Source of the DNA: Shigella phage Sf24
Direction: 5' to 3' (one strand)
DNA length: 64,000 bases
Sequence record: MF327008
Below, one piece after another: positions 58,026-60,036 of this stretch. The notes beneath the pieces are model-generated. The model saw only the letters and a program-made list of their open reading frames with translations, searched no databases and was not told the DNA's origin. Position 1 is the stretch's first letter; each line of letters starts with the position of its first letter. The position numbers and the translations under genes are program-made.

Positions 58026-58289
58026 TTATTTCATATTATTGAAATATTCTTCTGCGATTTCATCGTTATCATGGTAAACTTTAGAAGACAGTTTAACATA
58101 ACCTTCAGCAGTGAACATGTTAATCACAACCTTTACAGTATACCACTGACCATCTTCATTACCCATTACTGCGTAAGTTTCAAACATCGGATGATCAGGA
58201 CCGATAACTTTAATATCATTCACTGTACGACCAAAATCTTCTGAAACACATTTCATAAAGAAGTTGAACAGTTCGCCGTAATTATCCAT
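58026..58289 (-). CDS. hypothetical protein (87 aa)
   Basis: Track ORF begins at TTG 58301; first ATG 58287-89 with GGAGAATGAA SD; early promoter upstream. Confidence 0.55.
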   Translation of the reverse strand: MDNYGELFNFFMKCVSEDFGRTVNDIKVIGPDHPMFETYAVMGNEDGQWYTVKVVINMFTAEGYVKLSSKVYHDNDEIAEEYFNNMK

Positions 58290-58332
58290 TTCATTCTCCA
58301 AGTTGTTTTCTGTATCAGTAGTTGATAGTTGT

Positions 58333-58362
58333 ATAGTACCATGGAAGGGTAAGGATGTAAAC
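58333..58362 (-). promoter_or_regulatory. early promoter with conserved leader
   Basis: GTTTACA-N18-TACTAT then ACAACTATCAACT. Confidence 0.7.
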
Positions 58363-58480
58363 TGTTTTGTGAAAAAAATTTTTAAAAAGTTTTGGGGAAT
58401 TCTAGGGCAGGGAGGGGCAATTAAAAGATAGGATAATATATTATAAAGGGTAGAAACTAAATGATGTCTAGAGAGGCCCG

Positions 58481-58507
58481 GAAAGGCCTAGATACCAAAA
58501 AGCCCCA
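58481..58507 (-). terminator. hairpin plus U-run at the distal end of the tRNA / small-RNA transcription unit
   Basis: GCCCCGACC-GAAAGG-UUGGGGC followed by UUUUU. Confidence 0.55.
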
Positions 58508-58573
58508 ACCTTTCGGTCGGGGCTAAGCCTTGCGGCAACCTTGTCGGGGTTCCACCTGCTAAGGCAAGTGTTT

Positions 58574-58667
58574 GTACGAAACGCCGGGATTCGAACCCGG
58601 TTATCAAGCAGTTGACGCTACTCAATATTTTTAAAAGGCCATATCTCGACCATATCCGAACGTTCCG
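58574..58667 (-). ncRNA. tRNA-like element / candidate stable small RNA downstream of the tRNA cluster
   Basis: Minus strand carries acceptor-like CGGAACG/CGTTTCG pairing and a perfect T-arm CCGGG-TTCGAAT-CCCGG, but is about 94 nt with no clean anticodon arm; no ORF in 58380-58830. Confidence 0.3.
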
Positions 58668-58835
58668 TCAAAAACGCTACTCGGCTTACGGCAAAGATAT
58701 TTCCTCGAATCGATAATTCGGTGCGCCGTTTCTGCTGTGATATAAGGGGGCATTAACAAAACATAAAGATTTATTAATGCCAGTCCTTAAACAGGGAACA
58801 TCAGTCCGACGACTTACCGGTAGCGACCCGGTTTC

Positions 58836-59186
58836 TTAATATTCTTTTAAAGCATCAATTTGTTCACGGCGTTTACGCCATAAATCAATTGCTTCATAAG
58901 CAGATTCAGCATTTCGAATTAGCCGACATTTATGTAAAGACTTATGATTTTGATATTGTGTAGATAACGGAATTTTATCTAAAAGGTCTTTACGTTCAAA
59001 ATATTCGTAACCATCTAAACCAAATGAACGATTTTTGAGAAATTGCCAATGACCAAATTCGTTTTCGACATAAACATAATCTGCATGCTGATAAAGCAAA
59101 TTAATTACACGTTCAGAAATAACAGTATCATTATGATTAAAATAGAATGTTAAATCATGAACTACTAAGTAAACATTGCCTTTCAT
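58836..59186 (-). CDS. hypothetical protein (116 aa) immediately downstream of tRNA-Arg
   Basis: Track ORF 58836-59234 trimmed to ATG 59184-86 (GAGGAAAAT SD) because the longer form overlaps tRNA-Arg. Confidence 0.5.
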   Translation of the reverse strand: MKGNVYLVVHDLTFYFNHNDTVISERVINLLYQHADYVYVENEFGHWQFLKNRSFGLDGYEYFERKDLLDKIPLSTQYQNHKSLHKCRLIRNAESAYEAIDLWRKRREQIDALKEY

Positions 59187-59204
59187 ATTTTCCTCACTTA
59201 TAAT

Positions 59205-59281
<77 letters not shown>

Positions 59282-59710: not shown

Positions 59711-59712
59711 AG

Positions 59713-59786
59713 TCTCCATACAAGGATTTGAACCTTGGACCTCCTGATCCCAAATCAGGCGCTCTACCAAACTGAGCTACACGGAG
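59713..59786 (-). tRNA. tRNA-Pro (anticodon UGG)
   Basis: Hand-folded: anticodon stem CCTGA/TCAGG with loop TTTGGGA, T-arm CAAGG-TTCAAAT-CCTTG; CCA not encoded. Confidence 0.8.
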
Positions 59787-59962: not shown

Positions 59963-59963
59963 G

Positions 59964-60036
59964 CTGGGAATAAAGGACTCGAACCTTTGCATCCTGGAAT
60001 CAAAATCCAGTGCCTTACCAACTTGGCTAATTCCCA
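59964..60036 (-). tRNA. tRNA-Gln (anticodon UUG)
   Basis: Hand-folded: acceptor TGGGAAT/ATTCCCA, anticodon stem CTGGA/TCCAG with loop TTTTGAT, T-loop TTCGAGT; CCA not encoded. Confidence 0.8.

Follow-up and report, generated by a model that had tools for sequence, protein, structure and literature searches.

Two stable RNAs of bacteriophage T4 are the closest described counterparts of the locus studied here. rnaC (species 1 or band 1 RNA; T4s001, NC_000866 70908-71046) and rnaD (species 2 RNA; T4s002, NC_000866 71053-71171), known from T4 maps since the 1970s-80s and included in the annotation of the T4 reference genome and of some relatives, are made within a tRNA precursor of ∼1.75 kb that ends after rnaC, and both accumulate as stable RNAs late in infection (PMC2330249, PMC9697503, PMC3014915). 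The end of the T4 tRNA transcript was placed after the species I gene (PMC2330249), a stable, discrete T4 rnaC transcript of ∼140 nt has been documented by Northern blot, and a 58-nt RNAC template oligonucleotide has been published (both PMC9697503). The role of these RNAs is a 50-year-old question (PMC3014915, PMC9697503), and no function was assigned to either in the literature searched. During adaptation of a T4-like phage to E. coli ECOR34 a convergent SNP arose in rnaD (PMC12685909), which suggests that the role depends on the host and makes this idea testable.

The window, a 64,000-nucleotide stretch of Shigella phage Sf24 (MF327008), comes from a Tequatrovirus, a T4-like coliphage. We explain its interval 58380-58830, with a probability of about 0.85 for the whole reading including the maturation and payload steps proposed below, as the distal end of the tRNA operon. 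On the minus strand from 58839 to 58497, in the order of transcription, lie rnaD, a 6-nt A/U spacer, rnaC, a 50-nt trailer and an intrinsic terminator. The features are as follows.

58720-58839, minus strand: rnaD, orthologue of T4 species 2 RNA, ∼120 nt, aligned to the T4 annotation
58714-58719, minus strand: spacer GAAUUA, A/U-rich and single-stranded, between rnaD and rnaC
58575-58713, minus strand: rnaC, orthologue of T4 species 1 RNA, 139 nt following the T4 annotation, a tRNA-like four-way junction
58706-58712, minus strand: 5' strand of the rnaC acceptor-like stem, CGAUUCG, pairing with 58583-58577 and including a tandem U.U
58636-58705, minus strand: rnaC long arm, nt 9-78 (70 nt), in the place of the tRNA D arm
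58602-58627, minus strand: rnaC 10-bp arm with hexaloop CGUCAA (58617-58612)
58584-58600, minus strand: rnaC T arm, CCGGG-UUCGAAU-CCCGG
58575-58583, minus strand: 3' strand of the acceptor-like stem, CGUUUCG, followed by U and A
58525-58574, minus strand: trailer from rnaC to the terminator, with an invariant core at 58572-58538
58497-58524, minus strand: intrinsic terminator of the tRNA/rnaD/rnaC operon, AGCCCCGACC-GAAA-GGUUGGGGCU and a U run
58475-58488, no strand assigned: GGCC(C)...GGCC hairpin, broken in T4
58333-58362, minus strand: T4 early-type promoter for the downstream e.8 homologue, GTTTACA-N14-TGGTACTAT, from a promoter scan

An earlier note on this DNA had described the interval as an ORF-free structured region and had likened it to the T4 species 1/2 RNAs. 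The ORFs overlapping it do not exceed 45 aa, and, judged by alignment and gene order, its RNAs are orthologues of the T4 species rather than analogues. On alignment to NC_000866, rnaC matches T4 rnaC end to end at 136 of 139 positions, with the same length, on the same strand relative to the tRNAs and in the same place, between rnaD and the terminator that precedes e.8. Two of the three substitutions fall in the 10-bp arm, where they turn T4 U-A pairs into U.G wobbles. The published RNAC oligonucleotide is identical to the 5' end of rnaC here. A covariance model of rnaC, R1, scores the Sf24 copy at 163.8 bits, T4 itself at 165.5 and the homologues at 82-165. rnaD maps to 58839/58836-58720 with ∼90% identity to T4 rnaD (nhmmer profile match 58837-58717, E 1e-38); the 5' ∼50 nt, the 3' ∼30 nt, the gene order and the spacer are common to both phages, while the ∼10% divergence lies mostly in the central hairpin. 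The synteny is that of T4, running from the distal end of the tRNA operon through rnaD, rnaC and the terminator to the e.8 homologue (phrog_2678), with one difference: T4 has no ORF between tRNA-Arg and rnaD, whereas in Sf24 the 5' end of rnaD abuts a 116-aa ORF, the annotated end overlapping its TAA stop. One or both RNAs are annotated at this place in the records of RB68, Kha5h and RB59, and 810 phage records match the query, 678 of them over at least 80% of its length. The locus is thus already known and ordinary for T4-like phages, not a new element; the finding is a rediscovery, and what is added is a covariation-tested structure for rnaC.

The surroundings fit an RNA locus. G+C content is 41-50% in the region, like that of the tRNA cluster, and 29-37% in the flanking ORFs, which match only PHROG families of unknown function and carry no Pfam domain. 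ARAGORN finds ten ordinary tRNAs in the window and none within 58380-58840. Rfam 15 holds no family for rnaC or rnaD, and scans at gathering thresholds over the whole window and at E up to 10 over 58200-59250 gave no relevant match other than the sub-threshold tRNA-Sec signal described below. The description of the region as structured held up, since rnaC, rnaD and the whole 356 nt all fold better than shuffled sequences (z = -3.8, -3.4 and -5.5, respectively; MFE of -49.3 kcal/mol for rnaC and -36.9 kcal/mol for rnaD).

The minimum free energy fold of rnaC is a four-way junction, which was found independently for the homologues in TG1 (z = -6.5) and PG7 (z = -3.8); taken alone, Klebsiella-type homologues have weak folds (z = -2.2 and -0.8). 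RNAalifold on six sequences found compensatory change in 19 of 46 pairs. A MAFFT alignment brought together 13 distinct homologues, drawn from four or more Tevenvirinae genera. Across it, 91% of the cells of the four-way junction are paired and 24 of the 49 pairs show compensatory double changes; none of 500 shuffles matched this score, and slid controls pair at 36-45%. Folding with covariation from related phages, proposed as a check in the earlier note, shows that rnaC is a conserved, covarying 139-nt four-way junction. The two ends of the RNA pair in a 7-bp acceptor-like stem that sits directly against a canonical T arm, as in the acceptor/T minihelix of a tRNA.

The acceptor-like stem has five Watson-Crick pairs and the tandem U.U and is 73.6% paired overall. 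One pair covaries, pair 3 being A-U in four sequences and G-C in nine; 12 of 13 sequences retain the tandem U.U, TG1 having U-A and C-G instead. The long arm starts from a 3-bp base (AGG/CCU), continues through an internal loop AA...GG into an irregular hairpin of ∼60 nt, and is capped by a UGAC apical loop. Pairing reaches 90.7% in its helix 2 and 96.7% in helix 3, 13 of the 27 pairs have both partners changed, and in Klebsiella-type homologues the arm has a similar length and a different sequence. In the 10-bp arm compensatory changes affect 8 of the 10 pairs, and the loop is CRYCAA in every sequence. The T arm is paired throughout, with covariation at two of its five pairs, and its loop is conserved across the homologues. 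CIP9 and IME523 show a joint change of the T-loop and of the GG at nt 74-75 in the long arm. The perfect T arm had been recognised before and is real, but belongs to the minus strand: CCGGGTTCGAATCCCGG occurs once in the window, at minus 58600-58584, where 100 shuffles led us to expect none. The genomic sequence that continues from the 3' strand of this stem is U-ACA-A here, U-UCA-A in TG1 and U-CCA-A in four homologues from Klebsiella phages. GAAACG in rnaD (58732-58727) was considered as a third 5' partner for the 3' strand of the stem. It pairs perfectly, yet was rejected because in PG7, CIP9, TG1 and KLB31 the sequence upstream of rnaC is a tRNA or CDS and not rnaD.

rnaD combines ends that do not vary with a central hairpin that is exchanged between phages. 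Among relatives ∼50 nt at the 5' side and ∼30 nt at the 3' side are invariant, and the centre occurs in three unrelated versions. The predicted fold has a 5' hairpin ACCGG-GUCGCUA-CCGGU at 58832-58816, a long-range closing stem GUCGUCG/CGGCG-AC and the variable hairpin at ∼58781-58749. Five pairs are changed on both sides, and U38-A108 switches to A-U; the outer helices are invariant, so covariation does not bear on their pairing. Two candidate elements were rejected. A tRNA-like 3' end, as the T4 sequence ...GCGCACCA might suggest, fails because other phages end in CACCG, CACAG or CACCT; T4 ...CACCA is ...CACCG here, and the CCA-like end of T4 is therefore not conserved. A hammerhead-like core (CUGAUG...GAAAC, against the CUGANGA and GAAA cores between three helices that were wanted) has no Rfam match, has U at A9 and lacks a stem I at the required place, and the U of CUGAUG covaries as a base pair.

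Relatives carry the two RNA genes independently. Dhakaviruses have rnaD and the trailer without rnaC; rnaC is present in Karam-, Kanagawa- and Tegunaviruses, where the rnaD profile had no match. In PG7 and Pet-CM3-4, tRNA genes lie within 3-6 nt of rnaC on both sides, and a leader related to the spacer separates the CCA of the upstream tRNA from rnaC (AAUUAU in PG7, AAUAAA in CIP9). A metagenome scan added near-identical Tequatrovirus copies only. Matches to the patterns CRTCAA-N14-GGYTCGAATCC and TCGGTYCGAGGA-N-GGCCT in IMG/VR were mostly ordinary tRNAs or unrelated DNA, and weak covariance-model matches of 23-37 bits (L164, L154, L113:1073-1190) were ordinary tRNAs.

The fold of rnaC invites comparison with a canonical tRNA (RF00005). 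The end-to-end stem of 7 bp adjoins a 5-bp T stem with a UUCGAAU loop, there are unpaired 3' nucleotides that read U-CCA in some homologues, and the gene lies within a tRNA cluster. The differences are that rnaC has a 70-nt arm and no D arm, a 6-nt CRYCAA loop on a 10-bp stem in place of a 7-nt anticodon loop on a 5-bp stem (13 of 13 sequences), junction linkers of 0, 8, 1 and 0 nt rather than 2, 1, 4-5 and 0, and the tandem U.U in its acceptor, and that neither ARAGORN nor RF00005 detects it. Several RNAs that are not tRNAs carry tRNA-like domains and borrow tRNA processing, among them tmRNA, YrlA (a bacterial Y-RNA-like RNA), MALAT1 mascRNA and the tRNA-like RNAs of gammaherpesvirus 68. By analogy, rnaC may share their principle, an acceptor/T-arm minihelix on a non-tRNA body that would be recognised by RNase P and other tRNA enzymes, giving excision and stability. 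None of these RNAs matches it in sequence or through Rfam; it lacks the tag-peptide ORF and the pseudoknots of tmRNA and has no G3.U70 and no Ro-binding stem.

From these features a course of maturation can be proposed. The acceptor/T minihelix would lead host tRNA-maturation enzymes to excise rnaC from the precursor and would stabilise it. RNase P would act on the 5' side, where position -1 is usually U, and 3' trimming, possibly with CCA addition, would follow; the A/U-rich spacer may serve as an endonuclease site. In Sf24 tRNA-Gln and tRNA-Pro are without an encoded CCA, and some rnaC homologues encode U-CCA. The T4 annotation leaves a U 5' and UA 3' of the stem, so the annotated ends are not exactly those expected of RNase P and CCA addition. 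RNase III and RNase E were also implicated in the maturation of species 1 RNA in the literature of the 1970s-80s. The long arm and the hexaloop arm would then be the functional payload, binding a protein or RNA partner, and the two RNAs would be accessory, host-dependent factors rather than components of translation.

Another possibility is that rnaC and rnaD have no function in trans and are cis modules for folding, processing or 3' protection of the tRNA precursor, left over as stable by-products. In T4-type phages they are co-transcribed with the tRNAs and stand at the 3' end of the operon, and T4 mutants that have lost the entire tRNA region remain viable on laboratory hosts. The search for a partner fits as well: in a blastn search of 5,426 E. 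coli genomes, rnaD and rnaC had no more than four matches, each of 27 nt (E = 3), with no extended complementarity or similarity that would mark an antisense target or a host origin. We nevertheless hold this unlikely, as in PG7, Pet-CM3-4 and TG1 the place of rnaC is not the operon end but within the tRNA cluster or ahead of tRNAs, and each RNA is lost or kept as a clean module while the trailer and terminator persist. Moreover, the hexaloop stays constant while its stem covaries freely, and ∼80 nucleotides of rnaD do not vary; both speak for sequence-specific recognition over and above folding.

A bolder version of the payload idea, which as a whole we put forward as speculative and rather improbable, takes rnaC as a tRNA mimic with the ∼60-nt hairpin inserted in the equivalent of the D-loop, matured by RNase P, CCA-tailed and occupying a host factor that binds tRNA, with rnaC and, independently, rnaD acting in host range or counter-defence. 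The unpaired, conserved AA...GG at the base of the long arm may stand for A14/R15 and G18/G19, and candidates for the factor are immune nucleases directed at tRNA, modification enzymes and translation factors. The U-CCA of the Klebsiella phages, the invariant hexaloop, the joint change of T-loop and GG and the ECOR34 SNP in rnaD are hints short of evidence for such mimicry.

Returning to rnaC as a non-tRNA RNA with a tRNA-like minihelix, the structure also bears on the suggestion in the earlier note of a degenerate, oversized or intron-containing tRNA gene, which we consider very improbable. An 8-bp acceptor, ACGGAACG (58668-58661) with CGUUUCGU (58583-58576), can indeed be drawn so that with the perfect T arm it encloses ∼93 nt, the 94-nt body described before. 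The sole Rfam signal is a weak match to tRNA-Sec over 58576-58668 (16.4 bits, with a gathering score of 47; E 3.7), and in other records annotation pipelines call tRNAs at the corresponding place, as a 95-nt 'tRNA-Met' in PG7, 'tRNA-OTHER' in G9062 and 'tRNA-Lys' in G2133. The 5' partner is, however, the wrong one: this acceptor has no compensatory changes, one of its positions is unpaired in 7 of 13 homologues and it is broken in TG1, whereas its 5' strand sits in a helix that covaries at five of seven pairs. ARAGORN reports no tRNA and Rfam no tRNA or intron family at threshold, the loop of the arm that takes the anticodon position is 6 nt long in all homologues, and the parts foreign to a tRNA, above all the long arm, are maintained by compensatory changes, unlike those of a decaying pseudogene. 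The tRNA-gene reading is thus already contradicted by covariation. A group I intron within a tRNA finds no Intron_gpI or other intron match at E up to 10, the insert being a simple 60-nt hairpin, and tmRNA has neither an ARAGORN call nor an Rfam match at the locus. That the interval codes for small proteins is scarcely credible in spite of minus-strand ORFs of 42 and 45 aa with TTG starts and of CDS features in many GenBank records (ACG-C40_0132a/b, of 47 and 46 aa; 'hypothetical protein' in AR1, RB51 and others), given that the homologues, at 143, 144, 145 and 146 nt, differ by indels of 1-3 nt, substitutions come in pairs across the helices, the element in PG7 and Pet-CM3-4 is wedged among tRNA genes with no room for ORFs, and T4 makes a discrete RNA seen on a Northern blot (PMC9697503).

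Such misannotation follows from the lack of an Rfam 15 family for rnaC and rnaD, as a result of which many GenBank records call the locus hypothetical proteins or odd tRNAs; with a covariance model such as R1, hundreds of them would be put right. For mutagenesis and pull-down, the four-way junction, the CRYCAA loop, the tandem U.U and the modular presence or absence across genera offer defined starting points.

Downstream of rnaC, the core of the trailer forms a hairpin, CACUUGC-CUUA-GCAGGUG, followed by GAACCCCGACAAGGU, and is invariant in seven phages of four named genera; the trailer is retained without rnaC in IME08, EcoM005 and VR26. A hairpin and U-run terminator had been placed at 58481-58507, but that interval spans only an A5 run and parts of two hairpins. 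A terminator does exist, on the minus strand at 58524-58497, where a terminator scan found a 10-bp stem with seven G-C pairs, a GAAA loop and a U run. It is annotated in Kha5h, and its stem changes with pairing kept (GCCCC/GGGGC versus GGCCC/GGGCC). The GC-rich hairpin reported earlier, GGCCCGGAAAGGCC, is present at plus 58475-58488; it is broken in T4 (AGCC...GACC) without compensation and is therefore probably not a functional element. The early-type promoter at 58333-58362 belongs to the next transcription unit and not to rnaC/rnaD. It has 9 of 12 matches with a TG, is preceded by an A/T-rich tract (58400-58363) and is conserved in T4 and ACG-C40.

According to ARAGORN, the minus strand carries ten tRNA genes between 60036 and 59205, in succession Gln, Leu, Gly, Pro, Ser, Thr, Met, Tyr, Asn and Arg; Rfam confirmed nine of the ten at its gathering threshold. 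A megablast search with 58300-58860 matched 771 phage records, nearly all from Tequatrovirus and related coliphages, with a top identity of 98%. The interval 58380-58830 thus lies, in the direction of transcription, just downstream of this T4-like phage's tRNA cluster and is to be read on the minus strand. Its G+C content is 41-50%, similar to that of the cluster, compared with 29-37% in the adjacent ORFs, and no ORF of more than 45 aa overlaps it, in agreement with its earlier description as ORF-free.

The T4 reference annotation has tRNA-Arg, rnaD (species 2 RNA, 119 nt) and rnaC (species 1 RNA, 139 nt) consecutively, upstream of gene e.8. Aligned to T4, rnaC occupies 58713-58575 (minus strand), with 136 of 139 positions identical, and rnaD occupies 58836-58720 (minus strand; from 58839 if the first three bases of T4 are counted) at ∼90% identity. 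Both RNAs are annotated at the homologous place in RB68, rnaC and a terminator in Kha5h, and annotations of the rnaC/rnaD type are also found in RB59, RB3 and T2L; in many other records the same DNA carries a ‘hypothetical protein’ CDS or tRNA calls instead. Thus, the earlier note, which offered stable small RNAs like the T4 species 1/2 RNAs as its first interpretation, was right on this point and is borne out in part overall. In T4-like phages this is an ordinary feature, known before; the new points are the structure of rnaC, tested by covariation, and its phyletic pattern, a corrected fold, and the absence from Rfam of families for rnaC and rnaD. Automated calls on the rnaC homologue in matched GenBank records (H43, H96, H105) include ‘tRNA-Lys’ in G2133, a 95-nt ‘tRNA-Met’ in PG7 and ‘tRNA-OTHER’ in G9062. 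The elements of the two RNAs, with rnaC positions counted along its 139 nt, and the promoter that follows them are:

rnaD: 5′ hairpin ACCGG-GUCGCUA-CCGGU, then a long rod with closing stem GUCGUCG/CGGCG-AC
rnaC nt 2-8 with 131-137: terminal stem CGAUUCG/CGUUUCG, with two U·U
rnaC nt 9-78: long irregular arm
rnaC nt 79-86: A-rich linker
rnaC nt 87-112: 10-bp stem with loop CGUCAA
rnaC nt 114-130: T arm, directly adjoining the terminal stem at its 3′ strand
58362-58333: T4 early-type promoter GTTTACA ... TGGTACTAT, for the e.8 homologue, the next transcription unit

The predicted rnaC fold is a four-way junction (MFE −49.3 kcal/mol, z −3.8). Homologues were collected by low-stringency BLAST, which reached Enterobacter, Yersinia, Klebsiella and Cronobacter phages, and by searching IMG/VR and JGI metagenomes for sequence patterns and screening the results with a six-sequence covariance model; full-length matches scored 82-165 bits. 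They span Tequatrovirus, Karamvirus (PG7, Pet-CM3-4), Kanagawavirus (CIP9, IME523, KLB31) and Tegunavirus (TG1), as well as the unclassified Klebsiella phages kv_tblp2 and Clarke_MM3. When 13 distinct sequences were aligned independently with MAFFT, the four-way junction had 91.0% of its cells paired; shuffles gave 80.8%, and sliding the partners lowered the figure to 36-45%. Two-sided changes occurred in 24 of 49 pairs, and none of 500 shuffles matched the observed values. Covariation was seen at eight of ten pairs in the 10-bp arm, whose loop is constant (CRYCAA), at five of seven in the long arm's apical helix and at two of five in the T stem; pair 3 of the terminal stem is G-C in nine sequences and A-U in four, and the tandem U·U is retained in all except TG1 (12/13), which has U-A and C-G. 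Independent folding gave the same architecture for TG1 (z −6.5) and PG7 (z −3.8). The Klebsiella-type RNAs fold weakly, but they retain the terminal stem and both the hexaloop and T arms.

Two further features of the rnaC sequence were seen. The copies in CIP9 (phage sequence L006, 1507-1651) and IME523 (L185, 1116-1260) have a degenerate T-loop, UGCAUGC, and in these same copies the long arm has CG at its base in place of a conserved, unpaired GG; the two changes may reflect tertiary partners that changed together, or decay of both. The sequence GAGUAGCGU occurs twice, at nt 32-40 and 91-99 (58674-58682 and 58615-58623, minus strand). The rnaD 5′ hairpin loop CGCUAC (58822-58827) is complementary to GUAGCG, and the long-arm copy of GAGUAGCGU is conserved also where rnaD is missing; the repeat and its complementarity to the rnaD loop may be due to chance.

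The T-arm motif that had been picked out from the sequence is present, unique in the window and unexpected by chance, and lies on the minus strand at 58600-58584. The oversized 94-nt tRNA-like body built around it was rejected by covariation in the 13-sequence rnaC alignment. That fold, the counterpart of the PG7 95-nt ‘tRNA-Met’ and of a sub-threshold Rfam tRNA-Sec match, pairs ACGGAACG (rnaC nt 46-53) with the rnaC 3′ end. Its acceptor shows no compensatory changes, has one position unpaired in 7 of the 13 sequences, is broken in TG1, and has a 5′ strand that overlaps the strongly covarying apical helix of the four-way junction. GAAACG at the rnaD 3′ end was also rejected as the partner: rnaC directly follows a tRNA CCA in PG7 and CIP9, and a CDS in TG1 and KLB31. 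Neither ARAGORN nor Rfam called rnaC as a tRNA, tmRNA or intron.

What rnaC shares with a tRNA is the minihelix formed by the terminal 7-bp stem and the T arm; unlike a tRNA, it has no D arm, no 7-nt anticodon loop and different junction linkers. It lies in or adjoining a tRNA cluster in every case. The genome 3′ of the stem reads U-ACA-A in the window; TG1 has U-UCA-A there, and four Klebsiella-phage copies have U-CCA-A. The T4 rnaC annotation extends past the stem by one U on the 5′ side and UA on the 3′ side. Within the operon, tRNA-Gln (59963-60036) and tRNA-Pro (59712-59786, both minus strand) encode no CCA, and the addition of CCA by the host enzyme therefore belongs to the operon's normal biology; the remaining eight tRNAs encode CCA. 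The Gln/Leu and Pro/Ser genes are separated by 0-1 nt, an adjacency without CCA that resembles the classical T4 dimeric precursors. From the minihelix, the location, the 3′ sequences and the CCA-less tRNAs we infer that the minihelix would give the host's tRNA-maturation enzymes a handle for excising and stabilizing rnaC. In the primary papers on species 1/2 RNA processing, RNase III and RNase E have reportedly been implicated as well.

For rnaD, the MFE is −36.9 kcal/mol (z −3.4). Comparison of 24 distinct copies shows essentially no variation in the first ∼50 nt or the last ∼30 nt, and three unrelated versions of the central ∼50 nt (58745-58790, minus strand, in the window; also phage sequences L051, L009 and L197), each hairpin-capable, looking in sequence as if a hairpin cassette had been exchanged between fixed flanks. 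Only the inner part covaries, at U38-A108 (switched to A-U) and at four pairs that flank the central module; the outer helices do not vary and hence give no covariation signal. The CCA-like 3′ end of T4 rnaD is not conserved. The 116-aa ORF between tRNA-Arg and rnaD (58836-59186, minus strand; phrog_3355, function unknown, no Pfam domain), whose TAA stop overlaps the annotated rnaD 5′ end, is present in the window and many relatives, including RB68, RB69 and ACG-C40, and absent from T4, where tRNA-Arg directly adjoins rnaD. In EcoM005 (L188, 1131-1200), ∼70 extra nt between tRNA-Arg and rnaD are partly rnaD-like (GUCGUAUGAAGGACUGAU...CACCGGCGCAAC) and, judged by sequence, may be a degenerate duplication of rnaD.

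The two RNAs occur separately. In Dhakaviruses (IME08, EcoM005 and several IMG/VR genomes) rnaC is cleanly missing and rnaD is fused directly to the trailer, the conserved stretch between rnaC and the terminator (58525-58574, minus strand). An rnaD profile search found no match in the rnaC-bearing Karam-, Kanagawa- and Tegunaviruses. In the Klebsiella phages a shorter rnaD-like core, AAGUCGUCGAACUGACGUUCCCUG...UAUAUCACAGCUUGAAGCGGCGCA (nhmmer E 2e-6; kv_tblp2, L182 736-812; also L183, L210 and L213), precedes rnaC by ∼390 nt, and a tRNA-Met gene lies between the two.

Both RNAs have been classed as late RNAs, validated by Northern blot (PMC9697503), and their function is given as unknown (PMC3014915, PMC9697503). 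When a T4-like phage was evolved on E. coli ECOR34, every line acquired one convergent rnaD SNP (PMC12685909), which hints at a host-dependent role. Extended complementarity was looked for in E. coli genomes and not found. The best account is that rnaC and rnaD, once cut from the tRNA precursor, act in trans as two accessory RNAs, each independent of the other and under structural constraint. The tRNA mimicry of rnaC would then serve biogenesis, and its long arm and invariant hexaloop would be presented to a putative partner. That both are mere by-products of processing is less likely, because the hexaloop is invariant while its stem covaries freely, ∼80 nt of rnaD do not vary, and rnaC lies inside tRNA clusters in other genera.

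In T4, a middle promoter that precedes the tRNA cluster gives rise to the ∼1.75-kb tRNA transcript, which ends after the species I gene (PMC2330249). A consensus scan found one strong terminator-like site, at 58524-58501 (minus strand): its 10-bp stem, with seven G-C pairs, is capped by a GAAA loop, and a U run follows. A hairpin and U run had been recognized before, but placed imprecisely at 58481-58507, which holds an A5 run and fragments of two hairpins. The GGCC hairpin, likewise noticed earlier, exists at 58475-58488 on the plus strand, but is broken in T4 without compensation and is not regarded as an element.

The trailer core AACACUUGCCUUAGCAGGUGGAACCCCGACAAGGU (58538-58572, minus strand) is invariant in seven phages of four named genera, and is kept without rnaC in Dhakavirus and in Gaprivervirus VR26, where only the last ∼10 nt of rnaD remain. 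It in part duplicates the 5′ half of the terminator (CCCCGAC...AAGGUU), and could be a processing signal or a 3′-end-derived small RNA. Directly after the terminator U run (window ∼58497, minus strand), RB68 (L001, 2414-2887), Kha5h, PE37 and many relatives carry a ∼555-bp insertion with a 157-aa ORF; it is absent from the window, T4 and ACG-C40, and the post-terminator junction is therefore an insertion hot spot.
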